Assembly (NCBI GenBank): GCA_020845635.1
Contig: JADLFI010000026.1
Span: forward strand, 3,329-67,328
Direction: 5' to 3'
Length of the DNA: 64,000 nucleotides
DNA from: Bacteroidia bacterium
GTDB taxonomy: Bacteria > Bacteroidota > Bacteroidia > UBA4408
The position numbers and the translations under genes were made by a program. The notes under the pieces are model-generated. The model ran no database searches. It was not told where the DNA came from and was given only the letters and a program-made list of their open reading frames with translations. Within the stretch, counting starts at the first letter, position 1. Every line of letters starts with the position of its first letter. Shown here piece by piece: positions 1,430 to 27,154 of this stretch.

Positions 1430-3436
1430 TTAATTTTTTAAAAGCTTGGTACTTTTTACCGTATTGTTATGGGCATCAGTAACCTTAATATTGTACAAAC
1501 CGTTTGCCCAATTACTAATATCAAAGCTTTTAGACTTGTTTATGCTATTGTTTAATACAATCTTCCCATTCATATCACTAATTTCAACCGAATAAGACTC
1601 AGGAAGATTAGCAGATATATTCAAAATATCAGAACTTGGGTTAGGCCCAATAAATATAGATAACTCTGTTGAATTGTGGCCTGTTACATTTAAAGTAACA
1701 TCTTTTACTATAGTTCCTATTTTGTTTAATATCCAGTTGTTGGGATCAACAGAAATACCGGTAATGTTACCTTGTATAGGTAACATATAATTTTCTATTG
1801 CCTGTCCATGATACAATCTGATAATGGTATCGGGTAGGCCGGTTCGGATAATTTTATAATCAACATGAGTCATAAATACAGGCACCGAATTGGGCATAGA
1901 AGTTGTTTGCGATGATTTAAGAAAGAAAACATTGTTTACCTGATTCCATACTAAGGAGAATGTTGGATATCCTTCGCCATAGTACCATTGATTAAAAAAT
2001 TGATCAAAATTAATTCCCGAATAATTGGCCATAAAATCTTTAAACTGAACTACACTTGCCGTACTATAAGCATAGGCGTTCTGGAAAGCTCTGATAGCAG
2101 GAAAAAACACAGAGTCATTGTCAATTTCGTATCTTAATGAGTGTAATATGGCACTACCTTTATCATAAGTTAACCTTGAGTTGAATATAACATTGGCGTT
2201 GGCAGAGTCAGCATCAGAAATATAAGAGCTGCCACCGGGCTGCGACATAACACTATTGTGAACATCTTGCATTTTTTGCGAAGCTGTAGTGCCGGATATG
2301 GAGCCTAAGTACTGATGACACAAATATTCGGTATAACTTGCCCATCCTTCATTTATAAAAATATCTTTCCAAGACGAACAAGTTACGTGATCGCCCCACC
2401 ACTGGTGTCCTAATTCGTGCGCATCAATCTCAAAATCAAAAAAGCCTAAGGTGGTCATGGTTTGGTGTTCCATACCTCCGCCTAACGGTGCCATACAATG
2501 CCCGTATTTCTCATTCTTGAAAGGATACATTCCGAATAAATTACATTGCAGTTCAAAAGTTGGTACTATTTTGTTTAAAGTAACTTTTTGGCTATTTACC
2601 CAGTTATTATTATTTATGGCATTATCATAAATATAATTCAAAATCATGATTGAATCGTTTGGAAGCCAGGTAGGTTTTGCGTATAAAATATATGGTTTGT
2701 ATTTGGCAGTTGATACCGATATTAGGTAATAATCAATAGGATAGTTGCTTTTCCATTCATACCTCTTTTTATTTCCGATGGTAACTACATTGGTAAGTAA
2801 TCCGTTTGAACCTACCATATTGGTTGAGTCGGTGGTAGCAAATACCCATACAGAATCTATTTTATCTCTTAAACTTTGTTTGCACGGAAACCAATGATAA
2901 GCACAATCGGCTTCGCTTAGTGACCAAGTTACTTCATTACCCCATGATGGCGATTGGTCATGATTATAGCCATCGCCTATCGCAGCTCCGCCTCCGGTAG
3001 GGCAGGTGCCATGATAATATACTATGGCTTCAAACAATTGATTTTGTGCTAAGGTAGCTCCTGTTGAGGCTAACACCAAACTATCATAACGGTTAAAATT
3101 TTGTTTTGTTCCATTTATATAAACCGAATCAACTGTATGGTTTTGATGTAATACAAATGCAAAAGTATCCAGTGCCTGAGAGGTTACTGTGGCTATGCTT
3201 TTTACATTGCCACTAACAAATTTGGTATTGCGCTCAACATTTATATTAAGATGGTAAAATTTTAAATCGTAATTGTTTTCCTGAAAAGCTACCGAGCTGC
3301 TCTGTGCTGACCTTTGATTCAGAGAACGACTTTTATTGAAGCGTTTTATTTTTGCATCAGAACAAAAATGATTTTGGGCTAAAGTAAGTTGTGAACCTAG
3401 GAAAAATGCTACAATCCACAGATGTTTTATTTTCAT
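1430..3436 (-). CDS. M1-family zinc aminopeptidase, secreted through the type IX secretion system (T9SS C-terminal sorting domain)
   Basis: It carries an N-terminal signal peptide (MKIKHLWIVAFFLGSQLTLAQ). The HELGHQWWG zinc-binding motif with a downstream E is the gluzincin signature. GGGMEHQT resembles the M1 GAMEN motif. The last ~80 aa (…YSVEISDMNGKIVLNNSINKSKSFDISNWANGLYNIKVTD…) have the pattern of a Por/T9SS C-terminal domain. Confidence 0.75.
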   Translation of the reverse strand: MKIKHLWIVAFFLGSQLTLAQNHFCSDAKIKRFNKSRSLNQRSAQSSSVAFQENNYDLKFYHLNINVERNTKFVSGNVKSIATVTSQALDTFAFVLHQNHTVDSVYINGTKQNFNRYDSLVLASTGATLAQNQLFEAIVYYHGTCPTGGGAAIGDGYNHDQSPSWGNEVTWSLSEADCAYHWFPCKQSLRDKIDSVWVFATTDSTNMVGSNGLLTNVVTIGNKKRYEWKSNYPIDYYLISVSTAKYKPYILYAKPTWLPNDSIMILNYIYDNAINNNNWVNSQKVTLNKIVPTFELQCNLFGMYPFKNEKYGHCMAPLGGGMEHQTMTTLGFFDFEIDAHELGHQWWGDHVTCSSWKDIFINEGWASYTEYLCHQYLGSISGTTASQKMQDVHNSVMSQPGGSSYISDADSANANVIFNSRLTYDKGSAILHSLRYEIDNDSVFFPAIRAFQNAYAYSTASVVQFKDFMANYSGINFDQFFNQWYYGEGYPTFSLVWNQVNNVFFLKSSQTTSMPNSVPVFMTHVDYKIIRTGLPDTIIRLYHGQAIENYMLPIQGNITGISVDPNNWILNKIGTIVKDVTLNVTGHNSTELSIFIGPNPSSDILNISANLPESYSVEISDMNGKIVLNNSINKSKSFDISNWANGLYNIKVTDAHNNTVKSTKLLKN

Positions 3437-20158: not shown

Positions 20159-23100
20159 TTATTTCTTTAGCTTACTGAAAAGTTTTTCTAGCCCGTCAAG
20201 CAATTTCTTAAGCACATCAAAATACAAGGTAATAACCATTATTAAACTCATCCCCCAAATAACCAAACTATTTACCCAATAGGTATCAAAATAATTTCCC
20301 AAAAAGGCTTTTCGAGGTGCAAAAAAGTGAGCTCTGATAAAGCCATCTGCCGGAGGGTCAAGAAAAATTGGGTCTATTTTTTGCACTAATTGATCGTTAA
20401 TTTCAATGAAAGGATCTGTAGTTCTCTTATTTTTCAATAAATCGTTCAGGTTGTCATTGTCATAGTCTTGGCGTAGATTAACCAAATAATCTTTACCTTT
20501 TTGATTAAGCTTAATTACCACTTTTTCTCTTTTGTCATTGGTTTGATTGAACATTTTAATATAATACTGCTTTAGGTCACTCAAGTATTTTTTTGTTCTC
20601 TCGCCAACATCTTTGTTAAACTTACCTGGAACAAGATTTGCTAAATCATCATAATGAGGTTTAATTGAATTTTTTTTAATTGGAATAGCCAGTTCGTTAG
20701 ATATTTCTTTGGTCAACAATCTTAAATCGTATTCAAATTGTTCTTTCCCTTGAGGGTCGTTCAATAAATTTTCGGCATCGTCAACTTTGGCCAGCAGTCG
20801 GTCTAAGTAAAAGTCTTTTTTGTAGCTGGCTTTACTCATGGTTTTGTCAAACTTATAAAAGTTTGACTCGTAGGCATTGTTCATAAACTGATTAACCGCC
20901 AAGGCCTCATATGCCCATCGTGATGCCATTACCTCGCCCGATATGGGAACTTTGGTTTGAGAAGTAACAGAAGGGTTTAACTTATCGAATTTTACAATTA
21001 CACCACTAAGTATTAATTGCGGAATAATTAAAAATGGAATTAAAATATATATAGTTACAGCCGAGTTAAAGCTTGCAGAAACATTTAATCCAAGCATATT
21101 GGCAAAACAACTTGTGGTAAAAAGTATAAACCAGTAATCAGTATACATTCCATGAATACCTAAAATGGAATTACCTAATAGCACAAAGGTTAAAGTTTGA
21201 ATAGCGCTCAGAAAAAACATAATTACTATTTTGCTGAGCAAATAGCTTCCTTTACTTAAATTTAAAAACGATTCGCGTTTTAATATTTTACGGTCGCGTA
21301 TTATTTCTTCGGCACTTACCGTTAACCCCACAAATAGCGCAATAATAACGGCCATTAACAAATAAGCCGGAATGTTCTCGTTTTCTACATATTTATAGGT
21401 GTCTGACCCACTACCGGTATTGTAAAATCTAACTAGATAGCTTAATATAAGAGCCAAAATAGGGGTTTCAAGGAAATTAATTATTAAGTATTGCTTATTG
21501 GTAAGCTTACTCTTAACATCGCGTGTTATAAATACCTTAAATTGTTTTAACTTATTTGGTATTTTAAAAATGCTTTTAGGTATATCGCCCTTATGAATTT
21601 TCTTGGCTTCGGGTCTTAACTCACGTAAATAGGCTTCATTCCATTCTAAAGGCGATATTTTTCTGTTTGTGGTTGAATTACCGTACTCATCAATAACCTT
21701 GGTTTCAATAATATTAAAAATCTGCTCGGGATTAACATTTCCACAAGTTATACATTCACTTTCGGCAGCATTGGCATGATTTATTTGTTTCTTAAAGTAT
21801 ATAACTGCCTCAACCGGGTGACCGTAATAAATGGGGTAACCACCTAAATCAAGAATAAGCAACTTGTCAAACATTTTATAAATATCTGACGAGGGCTGAT
21901 GTATTACCACAAATACCAACTTCCCTTTTAAGGCTAATTCTTTTAAAAGATCCATAATATTCTCGCTGTCGCGCGATGATAGGCCTGAGGTAGGCTCATC
22001 AACAAATAAAACAGAAGGCTCTCGAATTAGTTCTAAACCTATATTTAATCTTTTACGTTGACCCCCACTAATGGTTTTCTCTAATGGACTCCCAACTTTT
22101 AAATTAGCCGTTTCCGACAAGCCTAAATCAACCAGTAAATCATGAACCATTTGCTTAATACGCTCATCATCATATTGGGCAAAGCATAATTTGGCATTGT
22201 AAAAAAGATTTTGAAATACGGTTAACTCCTCAATTAAAAGATCATCTTGCGAAATATATCCTATTACACCTTCAATATTTTTTGGGTCAGTATGAATGTT
22301 TATTCCGTTAATAAGAACTTCGCCTTTAAATGGCTTTTCAAGTCCATTGAGTACGTTCAAAACGGTTGATTTTCCTGCACCACTACCTCCCATAATTCCA
22401 ATAAGTGTTCCCGACTCTTCTGTAAAATTTAAAGGATGTAGTCCGGTTTTTCCTGATCTAAATTTATACTCTAAATCTTTTACTAAAAACTGGAGCTTGG
22501 TTTTTTGGTTCTCCTCCATAAAACTACTAACCACATCGCTGTAAAAAATTGGATGCAATTTGGTGCTTCTTATGCTTGAGCCTTGAGTTAAAATATAAAC
22601 CCTACCCGGCTTAATATCTAATCCATTGAGGTATATATCTTGATTGCCAAAATACCTAAAGGCATACATTGATACGCTCTTTATATGAAGGACCTCTATT
22701 TGGCCTTGCAAGGTTTCGCTATACAGATATTTTGACTCCTTAAGCTTTTCGGGTTTGCTGTTGCAAATTACCAAAATAGACGAAGAATCAAAATTGCAGG
22801 CCTCATTGCTATTGATAAATTTCAAGCATGATTGATATTCAACTTCATCAATATTGAAAGAAGAAGCTACAGTATCAACAAATTCAAGTTCTTGATTGCT
22901 TACAACATCATTGGAGGTAATAAACTCAATTAAACGTATTAGTACAATTACTTTTTGAGAGTGTGTTAGTTCTTTATTTATTTCAGAGCATATTCTTAAT
23001 ACCTTAACTGAGTTGAGCGAGAGTTTCTTGGTGGCATCAGCTCCTTTACTTATTTTATGAATAGATTCAATATAGTTATCAAAAACTTGTATATATTCAA

Positions 23101-23230
23101 ACACTAATTCTTTGTTAAGCTGTTGCTTTAGGAATGATTGTACAATACTGCGTCCAATTACGTTTACACCATCAACCTTGGCTATTATGGCAAAGAGCTG
23201 CATCAGCGCCCTGAGTATATTTTCACTCAT
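20159..23230 (-). CDS. Fused ABC transporter (ATP-binding domain + ABC-2/ABCG-type permease) with an N-terminal ~270-aa extension containing an FHA-like segment
   Basis: Walker A GIMGGSGAGKST. ABC signature LSGGQRKRLNIGLEL and Walker B VLFVDEPTSGLS. Six predicted TM helices follow in the C-terminal third, giving ABCG/White-like topology. In the N-terminal extension, …EVLHIKSVSMYAFRYFGNQDIYLNGLDIKPGRVYILTQGSSIR resembles an FHA fold. Confidence 0.7.
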   Translation of the reverse strand: MSENILRALMQLFAIIAKVDGVNVIGRSIVQSFLKQQLNKELVFEYIQVFDNYIESIHKISKGADATKKLSLNSVKVLRICSEINKELTHSQKVIVLIRLIEFITSNDVVSNQELEFVDTVASSFNIDEVEYQSCLKFINSNEACNFDSSSILVICNSKPEKLKESKYLYSETLQGQIEVLHIKSVSMYAFRYFGNQDIYLNGLDIKPGRVYILTQGSSIRSTKLHPIFYSDVVSSFMEENQKTKLQFLVKDLEYKFRSGKTGLHPLNFTEESGTLIGIMGGSGAGKSTVLNVLNGLEKPFKGEVLINGINIHTDPKNIEGVIGYISQDDLLIEELTVFQNLFYNAKLCFAQYDDERIKQMVHDLLVDLGLSETANLKVGSPLEKTISGGQRKRLNIGLELIREPSVLFVDEPTSGLSSRDSENIMDLLKELALKGKLVFVVIHQPSSDIYKMFDKLLILDLGGYPIYYGHPVEAVIYFKKQINHANAAESECITCGNVNPEQIFNIIETKVIDEYGNSTTNRKISPLEWNEAYLRELRPEAKKIHKGDIPKSIFKIPNKLKQFKVFITRDVKSKLTNKQYLIINFLETPILALILSYLVRFYNTGSGSDTYKYVENENIPAYLLMAVIIALFVGLTVSAEEIIRDRKILKRESFLNLSKGSYLLSKIVIMFFLSAIQTLTFVLLGNSILGIHGMYTDYWFILFTTSCFANMLGLNVSASFNSAVTIYILIPFLIIPQLILSGVIVKFDKLNPSVTSQTKVPISGEVMASRWAYEALAVNQFMNNAYESNFYKFDKTMSKASYKKDFYLDRLLAKVDDAENLLNDPQGKEQFEYDLRLLTKEISNELAIPIKKNSIKPHYDDLANLVPGKFNKDVGERTKKYLSDLKQYYIKMFNQTNDKREKVVIKLNQKGKDYLVNLRQDYDNDNLNDLLKNKRTTDPFIEINDQLVQKIDPIFLDPPADGFIRAHFFAPRKAFLGNYFDTYWVNSLVIWGMSLIMVITLYFDVLKKLLDGLEKLFSKLKK

Positions 23231-23270: not shown

Positions 23271-23312
23271 TTAAAAAAAAAAGACATTAATCATTTTACC
23301 GATTAATGTCTT
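23271..23312 (-). terminator. Strong rho-independent terminator ending the 26557→23338 minus-strand gene block
   Basis: Perfect 10-bp stem gacattaatc / gattaatgtc with an 8-nt loop. On the minus strand it is followed by a 10-nt U run (plus-strand A10 at 23273-23282). Confidence 0.75.
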
Positions 23313-23337
23313 TTATAAAGGCGTTTATTATTGAAGG

Positions 23338-23763
23338 TTATTGCTTAAAGCTTATCATCATAACGGCACACCCACTTGGAGCTTTCCCCGGAACAATTTG
23401 TGCTTCAATAGTACAATCTAAAGTAGAAACAAATTTAAAATCCCAATAAGGAGCGTTCTGTTGTTCGCTATTGTCAAAAAGTAAATTTCTATCACGGTCA
23501 AAAATACGAAATACAAGATTTCCATCGCCTAATCCGCTACAAGCAGCAATTCGATAGGTTGTACCACCGTAAAAAGTAGATTGAAATTCAGCAATTTCTT
23601 TATCGAGCAATAAGGCTCTGTAATGCTGCCCATCACTAATGTATTTAGCAGTCATGTGTTTTAAACACGAGTTTGCAATTGTGTCGCATTGCGCAGAGGC
23701 TTTTTGACTATAGCATAACAAAGAAGCAACAATGGCAAGTGTTATGGTAATTTGGCGAATCAT
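23338..23763 (-). CDS. Small secreted Cys-containing protein, unknown function
   Basis: Signal peptide MIRQITITLAIVASLLCYSQKASAQ. Contains five Cys residues. No recognisable family. Confidence 0.4.
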   Translation of the reverse strand: MIRQITITLAIVASLLCYSQKASAQCDTIANSCLKHMTAKYISDGQHYRALLLDKEIAEFQSTFYGGTTYRIAACSGLGDGNLVFRIFDRDRNLLFDNSEQQNAPYWDFKFVSTLDCTIEAQIVPGKAPSGCAVMMISFKQ

Positions 23764-23782: not shown

Positions 23783-24706
23783 TTAGTTAATAATCATTTG
23801 GCGGATAGCGGTTAATTTTTCTGTAATGATGTCAAGCTGCTCATTAGTAATTTTAACTTCGGTAGTACTGTTTATGGTAGTAATTTTATTAGCCACATCA
23901 GTAGTTGGTTTAACATAAGTATATTTTACTTCAATATCTTCAAATTCATGATATAAATCAACCATTGCATCTATCAACTCTGTAAGCTCGGTCATATCCG
24001 GATTTTGATAATAAGGAGTAAGTAATTTTATAACATGGTCAAGGGTGTTTTTTTGTTCTCCTACACGTTGTACTACGGCTTGTTTGTTTTTAAAGTCTTT
24101 CTTTAAAATATTAAGTGTAAAATACATACTTTCAATCCAGCCACCGGTAATAACCATTCCACTAACGGCAGTACGGTCGTTGTTTTTCAAATAACTATCG
24201 GTAGAACGGTAGGCCGAAGTGAATATAACGAGCAACGAATCATTATTGCCCATATTTTTCTCAAATCTTTTCATCAAGGCTGCGTCAAAAGCGCCAGATA
24301 CATTAATATCGTCAGCCAATCGTTTTGAGGCATTTAAATAGCCCAAAGCATCTTGGGTTTGACCATAAATAATTACGTATCCCAAATCGGCACCGTAAAC
24401 ACCTAAATTGAGCGCTTTTTTATATTCAGTTGAATAGGAGGGGAGTTTAGATGTTACGTTAAGCATATCTTTTGAGTAGTTGGCTCCACTATTTTTTAAC
24501 AACATACTTGTTTGTAAAGGCGAAGGAATACTAAATAATTCTCCGTTTACACTTACCAAATTGTCTTTAGTGGCATCAATAGGTTCTTCCTCTTGTTCTT
24601 CATCTACAGCTTTGTTTTTGTCGCCACTGCAGCCACTATTTAAGGTAATAAACGAAAGAATAACCAAGCTTGCAAAGCTAAGCTTCAGATATTTTTTATA
24701 ATTCAT
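23783..24706 (-). CDS. Lipoprotein, unknown function
   Basis: Lipobox LNSGC after the signal peptide. ORF only. Confidence 0.4.
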   Translation of the reverse strand: MNYKKYLKLSFASLVILSFITLNSGCSGDKNKAVDEEQEEEPIDATKDNLVSVNGELFSIPSPLQTSMLLKNSGANYSKDMLNVTSKLPSYSTEYKKALNLGVYGADLGYVIIYGQTQDALGYLNASKRLADDINVSGAFDAALMKRFEKNMGNNDSLLVIFTSAYRSTDSYLKNNDRTAVSGMVITGGWIESMYFTLNILKKDFKNKQAVVQRVGEQKNTLDHVIKLLTPYYQNPDMTELTELIDAMVDLYHEFEDIEVKYTYVKPTTDVANKITTINSTTEVKITNEQLDIITEKLTAIRQMIIN

Positions 24707-24848: not shown

Positions 24849-25562
24849 TCAATCATGCATATTGCCAATACCCGAAAGGGTAATAATATAATTATCTATA
24901 TACTTTTGTTTTTCTTTCGATTTATATTGTTGTATAAATCGGGGGTGATCTAACACTAACATTTTTTTAAACATTGGCTTTTCCTTATTAATTTGTTTTA
25001 GGAAAGTATAGTTCTTCTTTCCTAAAACGTACACTTCGCTAGTTATTAAACCTAGCTCAATGTGTTTTTGTAATGTTTCTATCATAAAATGTTTTACACA
25101 ACTAAATAAGTCTATATCATCATAATAATTGGCGTTAAGCCAGTGGTCATTTTTTACCAGACGTACAATAGCCAGAGGGAAAGGAGAGTTGATGTAAAAA
25201 TTATGGTAAAATTTATTTACCCCACCATAGCTGTTTATCATATCATACATAAAAACTGATGATACTTCGTGGGTATGTGCCGAGCTCATATTAATGCCGC
25301 AATAGGAAAGCAAACGTTTGGTGTCAGTAAATGGAACACCCGTTATACCGGCTCCATAACGACTGGGATTTATACCTATAATAAACTTACGTGGCTTATG
25401 GTCGTTATAGAATTTATGGTAAAATTGTTTCATTACCACTAATGTTTCGGGGTTTGTTAAATAAGGATTTAGTACAGCAAAGCCAGGAGGTAACTTGCCT
25501 CCAAACCTTAAGTTGCAATTAAACTCAATAATCCGCTCTGCCAAACTTCTATCTTTTTTCAT
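24849..25562 (-). CDS. Uracil-DNA glycosylase superfamily protein, SMUG-like (DUF4918/SMUG2-type)
   Basis: GINPSRYGAGITGVPFTD closely resembles the SMUG1 motif GMNPGPFGMAQTGVPFG. The C-terminal LDHPRF corresponds to the HPSPxN motif-B position. The ~237-aa length fits the UDG fold. Confidence 0.55.
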   Translation of the reverse strand: MKKDRSLAERIIEFNCNLRFGGKLPPGFAVLNPYLTNPETLVVMKQFYHKFYNDHKPRKFIIGINPSRYGAGITGVPFTDTKRLLSYCGINMSSAHTHEVSSVFMYDMINSYGGVNKFYHNFYINSPFPLAIVRLVKNDHWLNANYYDDIDLFSCVKHFMIETLQKHIELGLITSEVYVLGKKNYTFLKQINKEKPMFKKMLVLDHPRFIQQYKSKEKQKYIDNYIITLSGIGNMHD

Positions 25563-25570
25563 AGCATATT

Positions 25571-26557
25571 TTAAAAAGGCAAATCAACCTCTTGGTGCTT
25601 AATAAAAGTATTGGTTCTTTCATTAATTAAGTAGCTGATAGGGGAGTTAGGGAATTGATGAATATCCTTAATAGTTATACCCCAAGGCTGCCATAGGTTA
25701 GCCAAAACCTGAGCAAACATTTTATCATCCCAAACTTTAAAGTTTTGAGCTTTAAAATTATTAGGTAGTTGGAAAACTATTTTATGATTTTCGAGAGTGA
25801 TCAAATAATCGGGCGATTCGCTTAATAGGTAGTTGGCATAAATAAAATGCCCGTATAGTTCTTCGAACTGGGCCGGGTGCAGCATAGCATCATTTATTTG
25901 TTCTAATAAATGGTGATGGAATGCTGCCACTTGGCCATTATCTTGCAAACATGCTATAATACCAAAACCGTTCATTCCAAAACAAAAGTTAAGTTTATTG
26001 GTTTCATCTTTATAGTTAAGTATATCTTTCGAAATATTTACACTGTAGCACTTTATTGACCAAGGTAAAAAACCTTTAAATTCTATAGGATAAATAAGCG
26101 ATTGCAACATAAAAAGCAAATTCCTGTACCGTTGTTGCATTAAAGGCGAAACTTCAAATTCCTTATCGCGCATTTCGTGATAGTTAATGGCATAGCTGAA
26201 ATCCTGATAAAGTATTCCATACAGTACACGCGCCATCCATTGAAATAAAGTAAGTTCCGGCATTGTTTTTACAGTTTCATAACCTTCTTCAAAAGCTTTC
26301 TGAGTAACTTTATCAAGTTCTGTAATGGCATCATAAACTTCATCGCATACAGGCAATTTCATATCCTTGTATTTTATTCTATATCCGTCAAGAAGCGACA
26401 ATGTAGTTTCTTCAATTTGATATCTTTTCATTAACCATTCAGGAAAAGCTGTAATTTGTTTAGGATTTTCGTTCAGTATTTTTCCGCTTAAAAAACAAAT
26501 ATGAGGTTTAAAAGCTAAAGGTTGAAAGGGGTTGAACAAAGGAACATTCATCATCAT
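25571..26557 (-). CDS. Hypothetical protein, 8 bp upstream of and co-directional with the SMUG-like glycosylase
   Basis: ORF only, 328 aa. It has no Walker or other recognisable motifs and no signal peptide. Confidence 0.4.
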   Translation of the reverse strand: MMMNVPLFNPFQPLAFKPHICFLSGKILNENPKQITAFPEWLMKRYQIEETTLSLLDGYRIKYKDMKLPVCDEVYDAITELDKVTQKAFEEGYETVKTMPELTLFQWMARVLYGILYQDFSYAINYHEMRDKEFEVSPLMQQRYRNLLFMLQSLIYPIEFKGFLPWSIKCYSVNISKDILNYKDETNKLNFCFGMNGFGIIACLQDNGQVAAFHHHLLEQINDAMLHPAQFEELYGHFIYANYLLSESPDYLITLENHKIVFQLPNNFKAQNFKVWDDKMFAQVLANLWQPWGITIKDIHQFPNSPISYLINERTNTFIKHQEVDLPF

Positions 26558-27056
26558 TTCAAAGATATTGGGGGTAAAATAAGTTAAGTTAGTTTCTTAA
26601 AACAATATGTTAATTATGTATTTTTCAAAAAAATGGTGCTGAAAGCGCTTTTTGTGTGATTTTAGTTTATAACCGTGTTTGTTTTTCATAACTAATTTAT
26701 AGAAATACTCGTTTTATTAGTGTTTAAAGTATGAATATGTTTGAGGAAAGAAAAAATTCTTTTCAATTAAAAAGGCACTTTAAAAATAGCATTTATTAGA
26801 ATACAAAAGTAAATTAAAATATTGTATTCATTCCTCAGTTTAATAATTACTGTACTTATACGAGGGTTTTCAGTTATATGTTTAAAGTTGAAAATGTTGA
26901 TTTACTTAAAGGAGTCTGCTAAACTTGTTTGTATGGCTTTATTTGAAAGCAAAATGGGATTGATTATTTGTGGGAACTGTATATTCAATATTTGTCCTAT
27001 AATTAATATTATGTTAAATAGAATAATCAAAAAGTTTAATTGAATAATTAAAAATT

Positions 27057-27154
27057 GGAAAACTGTTTTTCCAAATACTGTATGAACTTTGCTATGTTAA
27101 ATCGGATAGTTTAAAACGGAAAACTATTTTTCCATATATTGTCTGAACTTTGCT
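27057..27154. repeat. Direct repeat: a degenerate ~37-bp duplicate of the 3' end of gene 27124..27957, displaced 61 bp downstream
   Basis: Copy A (27057-27093) is ggaaaactgtttttccaaatactgtatgaactttgct. Copy B (27118-27154) is ggaaaactatttttccatatattgtctgaactttgct. Copy B encodes the last 10 codons (…AKFRQYMEK*) of the minus-strand gene. Confidence 0.8.

Follow-up and report, generated by a model that had tools for sequence, protein, structure and literature searches.

A SMUG2-type DNA glycosylase gene and an adjacent gene for a predicted HNH-deficient protein in a Bacteroidia genome, with no support for a dedicated two-gene module

The gene pair

The 64,000-nucleotide stretch of contig JADLFI010000026.1 analysed here (positions 3,329 to 67,328 of the forward strand; Bacteroidia bacterium of the lineage UBA4408, GenBank assembly GCA_020845635.1), referred to below as the window, carries on its minus strand a gene for a protein of 328 amino acids (aa) and, 8 bp downstream of it, a gene for a 237-aa DNA glycosylase of the uracil-DNA glycosylase (UDG) superfamily. 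The first-pass annotation of the window had described them as a translationally coupled pair heading a four-gene block, and had suggested that the glycosylase with a dedicated partner could be a repair module or, more speculatively, a base-excision-based defence or modification system. It is considered quite probable here that the two are unrelated chromosomal genes that are transcribed together, the one encoding a SMUG2 repair glycosylase and the other a protein with a dead HNH module acting independently of SMUG2, and that their adjacency is eroding. The coordinates and the spacing of the two minus-strand genes proved to be as first described, and the elements of the pair, numbered by the window, are the following.

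25571 to 26557, minus strand: open reading frame (ORF) of the 328-aa protein, also called the partner below (from the ORF list)
26333 to 26509, minus strand: degenerate HNH-like N-terminal region of the partner, residues ~17-75 (alignment A3, hhalign and motif census)
25574 to 26332, minus strand: C-terminal domain of the partner, ~250 aa, common to the relatives with an intact HNH
25563 to 25570, minus strand: spacer aatatgct, 8 nt, from the stop codon of the 328-aa gene to the start codon of the SMUG2 gene (sequence)
24849 to 25562, minus strand: 237-aa ORF, DNA glycosylase of the SMUG2 subfamily, UDG superfamily (Pfam, PDB and alignment)
25329 to 25376, minus strand: SMUG2 motif 1, GINPSRYGAGITGVPF, residues 63-78
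24936 to 24947, minus strand: SMUG2 motif 2, HPRF, residues 206-209

The junction of the two genes reads TAA, aatatgct, ATG. The independent Logan assembly SRR8750958 has a copy that is 99% identical, with the genes in the same order and the 8-bp gap unchanged, so the locus is not an assembly artefact; spurious ORFs are likewise ruled out by the hundreds of conserved homologs of each of the two proteins.

The glycosylase

The Pfam UDG profile PF03167 was recovered in residues 50-227 of the 237-aa protein with 52.3 bits (cutoff 24.3; E=8.4e-14), and this general model was the sole Pfam family returned. The PDB entries 5h0j and 5h0k were matched collinearly, residues 7-234 against 4-233 (E=3.6e-67), and in alignment A2 the 5h0j sequence is 45% identical. 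The sequences of these two entries have a single difference, a G-to-Y change within GINPGRFG; they are titled in the PDB only as 'Uncharacterized protein', and we take them to be the SMUG2 of Pedobacter heparinus and its G65Y mutant. The structures reportedly originate from the work of Pang et al. 2017 (Biochem J 474:923), and the P. heparinus enzyme is said to be active alone in vitro; no paper mentioning 5H0J turned up in the literature search.

The core of motif 1, GINPSRYG, occupies residues 63-70 and aligns to GINPGRFG of 5h0j, and its N65, invariant in alignment A2, would be the catalytic Asn by homology. The form GINPSR[HYNK]G was found in 81 of the 82 homologs and a motif 1 of the type GINPxRxG in all of them, the Ser of the window protein being the usual residue (81/82) at the position that is Gly in 5h0j and is mutated in 5h0k. 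Motif 2 is equally general, with HPR[FY] in 82/82 homologs, and is invariant in alignment A2. Since both motifs are present in 81-82 of the 82 homologs, the 237-aa protein is, by its sequence, a typical representative of SMUG2, a known family. The original assignment to a SMUG2-type glycosylase of the UDG superfamily is thereby upheld, with PF03167 above its cutoff, the match to 5h0j and the presence of both motifs.

The SMUG2 of P. heparinus (5h0j/5h0k), as cited in PMC10776899 and PMC8307549, has the same UDG-superfamily domain and also comes from Bacteroidota, and common to the two proteins are the GINPxRxG motif with its Asn, the HPRF motif and a collinear similarity over the full length. 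SMUG1 (family 3 UDG; 1oe4, 5h93) belongs to the same superfamily and has the same type of N-terminal motif region, but its similarity to the 237-aa protein is marginal, with E=0.11 (5h93) and 0.44 (1oe4) over ~45 residues. The SMUG1 motifs GMNPG and HPSPRN are absent from the 237-aa protein. Membership in SMUG1 was rejected, as no similarity was significant, the best being E=0.11 over ~45 residues.

By homology, the 237-aa protein would be a base-excision-repair glycosylase, a monofunctional one, by which a deaminated base would be flipped out, its N-glycosidic bond cut and an abasic site left for base-excision repair. It would act on uracil, and probably also on hypoxanthine, xanthine and derivatives of uracil; a wider specificity of SMUG2, which may extend to uracil derivatives, hypoxanthine and xanthine, is given in a review (PMC8307549). 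The glycosylase itself brings nothing new, being another SMUG2 in a family for which structure and biochemistry already exist.

The 328-aa protein and its degenerate HNH module

The 328-aa protein had no match in Pfam, NCBIfam, PADLOC and PHROGs (noise only in PHROGs), and all of its 658 homologs are named 'hypothetical'. A PDB search with the profile of its Bacteroidota clade, referred to as the dead clade, retrieved nothing, and a Pfam scan of 43 members of this clade gave scattered noise only. The statement that the protein has no recognisable domains is therefore correct for the standard libraries, and no named housekeeping family was matched, but the deeper search shows a degenerate HNH at its N-terminus. 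Thus, the comparison by hhalign of the dead clade (alignment A1) with the clade of distant relatives that have an intact HNH (alignment A4) gave a probability of 100% and E=1.7e-77 over 312 columns, collinear along the full length. These relatives carry at the N-terminus the full Cys4-zinc HNH signature CFLCG...T.EH[VI]FP.WL...N...IPCC..CN, and in the 50-sequence alignment of the intact clade the residues C29, C32, E43, H44, N65, C79, C82 and N83 are invariant.

When the window protein is set against the intact clade, the second Cys is replaced by S24, the catalytic His (H44) by T36, the Asn N65 by D57 and N83 by Y75, and the intact PCCxxCN reads P69-V-C-D-E-V-Y. Two of the four zinc Cys, C21 and C71, are left in the window protein and one of the four in the consensus of the Bacteroidota clade, which at the Cys4 sites is CFLTG...LPAS..V. 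In the motif census all 120 of the 120 close homologs lacked all three HNH elements, which were kept together in 88 of the 149 wider representatives. The Pfam family HNH_5 (PF14279) was matched by 33 of 50 intact members, with a best E=2.5e-5 and every match below the gathering threshold, and by none of the 43 Bacteroidota-clade members. The 328-aa protein is, judging from these alignments, a full-length homolog of HNH-containing proteins with an inactivated HNH and, since the catalytic His and most of the zinc ligands are lost in the Bacteroidota clade, its residues indicate that it cannot be an HNH nuclease. A zinc-finger protein or an active HNH protein was likewise ruled out by the lost ligands.

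Among the known systems, the closest in their motifs are the Cys4-zinc HNH endonucleases (HNH_5; PtuB of the Septu system), whose arrangement CxxC...EH...N...CxxCN is carried by the relatives of the 328-aa protein, one intact relative being weakly similar to PtuB (E=0.003). However, the described HNH families have no counterpart to the ~250-aa C-terminal domain of the 328-aa protein.

A profile HMM search with the 328-aa family in 1.84 billion representatives returned 1,086 clusters at E<=0.001, and the unnamed family comprises ~1,100 clusters at 50% identity. There are 35 invariant columns at 45-60% identity, and strong purifying selection, as read from the sequences, acts on scaffold and C-terminal domain. 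The AlphaFold (AF2) model of the 328-aa protein has a pLDDT of 94, and no fold relative was found for it among solved or viral structures; the profile-profile comparison and structure prediction suggested in the first-pass annotation have thus yielded an HNH-family homology on the one side and no fold relative on the other.

The polar residues D184, D206, Q230 and E233 of the C-terminal domain are conserved in the dead and intact clades alike. An enzyme with its active site in this domain, marked by these four residues, with a substrate unrelated to DNA repair and with the HNH retained as a remnant, is a possible but rather unlikely alternative, to which the shared residues, the strong conservation of the family and the varied, mostly metabolic neighbours of its genes would be favourable, but no fold or sequence relative was found that points to a catalytic class. 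In the preferred reading of two unrelated genes, the 328-aa protein would have a non-nucleolytic role independent of SMUG2, most likely the binding of a nucleic acid or of a ligand through the C-terminal domain.

Settings of the relatives with an intact HNH

The intact-HNH relatives (sequences P0136-P0269, loci L168-L174) form a large unnamed family in which the HNH module is joined to the ~250-aa C-terminal domain, and their distribution is patchy. Plasmid-borne copies come from Bacillus, Peribacillus, Lactiplantibacillus, Rhizobium, Agrobacterium and Bradyrhizobium (13 plasmids, 10 of them conjugative), with IS elements, an HTH-PIN pair, DUF3883, DUF5677 and ImuABC as neighbours. On chromosomes some immediately follow a tyrosine recombinase gene, others are next to an SNF2-NOV_C helicase or a LAGLIDADG gene, and some adjoin CTD6/MC2 conflict-system domains. 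None was near a UDG gene in the loci inspected, and none was present in the phage collection. One carries the UniRef name 'HNH endonuclease', and PADLOC gave for the intact relatives a single weak match only, that to PtuB (E=0.003). As PADLOC has no model for them, they may be, from their sequences and settings, an undescribed family of accessory or defence nucleases. An N-terminal extension of ~85 aa was observed in several of them (P0159, P0141, P0147, P0166), and that of P0159 has a weak match to a MarR-type winged helix (E=6.6e-4), so that members of this subgroup may have a DNA-binding domain fused to them.

The family of the 328-aa protein would accordingly descend from a patchy, island- and plasmid-borne family with an N-terminal Cys4-zinc HNH and the ~250-aa C-terminal domain. 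The parsimonious reading would be that a family of accessory HNH effectors gave rise to a chromosomal branch in Bacteroidota, in which the nuclease chemistry was lost and the scaffold with the C-terminal domain was kept.

Distribution of the pairing among related loci

The family of the 328-aa protein is widespread in the non-Bacteroidales Bacteroidota. Relatives of the partner were found in more than 482 species genomes, and the neighbourhoods were taken from the 80 best loci, which belong to Chitinophagales, Cytophagales, Flavobacteriales and Sphingobacteriales. A SMUG2 gene was present within 6 kb in 5 of these 80 loci: directly downstream of the partner in two (L011 and L019), at a distance of 1.25 kb in L009 and of 3.7 kb in both L003 and L004, with opposite-strand genes between the two in the last three. 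In the reverse test, 80 metagenomic SMUG2 loci were retrieved, 70 of them with enough upstream DNA, and the partner was found within 5 kb in 3 of the 70 and adjacent to SMUG2 in none. The four closest homologs of the partner (57-62% identity) all differ from one another in their neighbourhoods, none of which includes a UDG gene within 4 kb. A Pedobacter locus (L080) has the partner and no SMUG2 in its flanks.

In the neighbour-joining tree of the partner proteins, all SMUG2-linked loci fall together with the window in one clade, which also holds the unlinked loci L002, L005, L006, L007, L010, L016 and L023, and none of the ~66 partner loci outside this clade is linked to SMUG2. Since linkage is restricted to a single clade that has unlinked members too, the pairing fits the inheritance of a gene order in one lineage and its present decay better than selection for a module; the adjacency would be an order passed on within this clade and being eroded.

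Neither of the two genes keeps a constant neighbour, as no neighbour family occurred in more than 13 of the 80 partner loci or 16 of the 80 SMUG2 loci. The recurring neighbours are housekeeping genes of unrelated function: PurC (SAICAR synthase), the CCA-adding enzyme, a Gfo/Idh/MocA oxidoreductase and patatin, further BioA (class-III aminotransferase), DUF488 and an ArsC-family protein. SMUG2 overlaps, or is at most 10 bp away from, an unrelated upstream gene of the same strand in 20 of 53 loci, so a tight spacing is typical of SMUG2 genes and is no sign of a partnership. Thus, the neighbourhood comparison shows that the pairing is not conserved across Bacteroidota, and the idea of a dedicated partner in a two-gene module, as advanced in the first-pass annotation, did not survive it: the linkage amounts to 5/80 loci from the side of the partner, 3/70 from the side of SMUG2 and 0/4 among the closest homologs. 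The 328-aa protein is not a dedicated partner of SMUG2, and a module of glycosylase plus partner has no support.

Two further observations were made in these loci. A DUF488 protein (~181 aa, PF04343, E=4.7e-31; for example, L154:5727-6272) is the commonest immediate same-strand downstream neighbour of SMUG2, being present in 16 of the 80 SMUG2 loci (L081-L160) and directly beside SMUG2 in 14; this association is more frequent than that of SMUG2 with the 328-aa protein, there is no DUF488 gene beside the SMUG2 gene of the window, and the literature search on DUF488 gave nothing on its function. The locus L064, on a contig of a metagenome-assembled genome labelled 'uncultured Bifidobacteriaceae bacterium', carries a typical Bacteroidota-clade partner and has probably been misbinned or mislabelled in the public record.

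Co-transcription and the case for a clade-specific operon

The 328-aa and SMUG2 genes are probably co-transcribed in the source genome, because they are separated by an 8-bp spacer, the Bacteroidetes-type -7 motif TAnnTTTG had no match in this spacer, and candidate -7 motifs lie upstream of the first gene.

26560 to 26567, minus strand: match to the Bacteroidetes-type -7 motif TAnnTTTG (TATCTTTG), by motif match only

This match is located 2 nt upstream of the first ATG of the block, and a second one is found on the minus strand at 26804-26811. No TAnnTTTG match was found in the spacer between the SMUG2 gene and the next gene of the block, which encodes a 307-aa protein. The translational coupling of the pair proposed at first is a reading of the spacing. 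In the preferred reading, the co-transcription would be a happenstance of the source lineage, in which two unrelated chromosomal genes came to share a transcript.

Both matches lie in an AT-rich intergenic region of 566 bp upstream of the partner gene (26558-27123), in which no convincing ORF was found, the sole candidate being a 73-aa ORF with a TTG start on the plus strand; an Rfam search of the whole window, this region included, gave no match.

Several points weigh against the view of two unrelated genes. Co-expression of the two genes in the source genome is implied by the 8 bp between them and the lack of a -7 motif there, and the order with the partner upstream of SMUG2 is kept in six loci of one clade, which exceeds chance for unlinked genes. 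The ancestry of the partner from a DNA-binding protein would fit an accessory role in repair. The HNH assignment consists of an invariant signature and of Pfam matches that are all below the gathering threshold, and a PDB search with the intact-clade profile retrieved no HNH protein.

A part of these points would be accounted for by an operon specific to the clade, in which the dead-HNH protein serves SMUG2 as a DNA- or lesion-binding accessory, for example in targeting or in the protection of abasic sites. The tight spacing with no internal promoter motif, the adjacent order in the window and in L011 and L019, continued loosely in L009 and L003/L004, and the descent of the partner from a nucleic-acid-cutting fold would agree with this; however, the genes are unlinked in the ~66 loci outside the clade and in seven loci inside it, the order is interrupted by opposite-strand genes in L009 and L003/L004, the reverse test yielded 3 linked and no adjacent cases among 70 SMUG2 loci and the closest homologs none of four, and in Pedobacter the partner is encoded with no SMUG2 in the flanks, so that such an operon is improbable. 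The evolutionary variant of the same idea, in which the family would be a domesticated, nuclease-dead offshoot of mobile HNH effectors that was exapted as a chromosomal factor binding DNA lesions or abasic sites, co-expressed with SMUG2 ancestrally and to this day in the source lineage, is regarded as quite improbable; if true, it would add an undescribed accessory protein to bacterial base-excision repair.

Comparison with glycosylase-based defence systems

Enzymes of the UDG superfamily have been co-opted for defence against phages (PMC11078745; bioRxiv 10.1101/2025.10.29.685425). Brig1 and Brig2 are single-gene systems that target hypermodified phage bases and are located in defence islands, in integrons or near mobile elements (PMC11078745; bioRxiv 10.1101/2025.10.29.685425). 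Like SMUG2, they are monofunctional glycosylases of the UDG superfamily, but the gene of the window belongs to a repair-type family and stands among housekeeping and envelope genes, and it is by context and description that it is set apart from them. No match for the four genes of the block was found with PADLOC v2.0.0 of 2023, which may predate Brig1. The neighbours in the window encode an ABC transporter, a lipoprotein, a secreted protein, a TPR protein, an aldolase and a GT2 protein, with no integrase, transposase, mobile or defence gene among them, and the GC content is flat at ~0.33 across the region. The neighbours of the SMUG2 homologs are BioA, DUF488, ArsC-family and DUF2157 genes. 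A Brig-type setting was rejected for the locus, as there is no defence island, integron or mobile element and the GC content is flat.

A two-gene system for base-excision defence or for the sensing of modifications, similar to Brig1/Brig2 with an added effector, is therefore most improbable. The co-option of UDG-superfamily enzymes against phages and the position of the intact-HNH relatives in mobile or conflict islands would be in its favour, but neither protein has a PADLOC match (with the same reservation as to Brig1), the SMUG2 motifs are of the repair type and fixed across homologs in housekeeping contexts, the partner has lost the catalytic His and most zinc ligands of its HNH, and Brig1 and Brig2 act as single genes (PMC11078745; bioRxiv 10.1101/2025.10.29.685425). 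The more speculative proposal of the first-pass annotation is thus given up, since neither PADLOC matches nor mobile or defence genes were found, the GC content is flat and the nuclease residues are lost.

Meaning of the findings

The outcome is negative as regards a conserved repair or defence module of glycosylase and partner, for which there is no evidence, and the locus is therefore not worth pursuing as a Brig-like system. At the same time, a large unnamed family is described, with a stably chromosomal branch in Bacteroidota in which the HNH is lost and other branches with the HNH intact on plasmids and islands, as an example of an accessory nuclease family turned into a conserved non-nuclease host gene. 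It gives annotators a handle, because neither Pfam nor NCBIfam has a model for this family. The dead-HNH branch of Bacteroidota appears as a modestly interesting case of domestication, with a C-terminal fold that is unclassified.

The remainder of the four-gene block

Downstream of the pair, the same-strand block continues with two genes and a terminator-like structure.

23783 to 24706, minus strand: 307-aa predicted lipoprotein (signal peptide followed by Cys), gene 3 of the block
23338 to 23763, minus strand: 141-aa predicted secreted protein, gene 4 of the block
23279 to 23314, minus strand: terminator-like hairpin with a T-run, closing the four-gene block

The four genes (328, 237, 307 and 141 aa) are separated by gaps of 8, 142 and 19 bp. 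The block does end, as first described, at a hairpin with a T-run after it (23314 to 23279 on the minus strand), though only 3 of its 15 pairs are G-C. The 307-aa and 141-aa proteins matched no family in Pfam, NCBIfam, PADLOC or PHROGs and had homologs in 0 of the 160 related loci; they appear from their sequences to be lineage-specific envelope proteins, the 141-aa one being Cys-rich. A functional block of four genes was ruled out by this absence of homologs from the 160 loci. Directly downstream of the block, at 20159-23230 on the minus strand, a 1023-aa ABC transporter (ABC_tran and ABC2_membrane) is encoded, the N-terminal extension of which, ~260 aa long, has a weak TerB-like match (E=0.029, below threshold).

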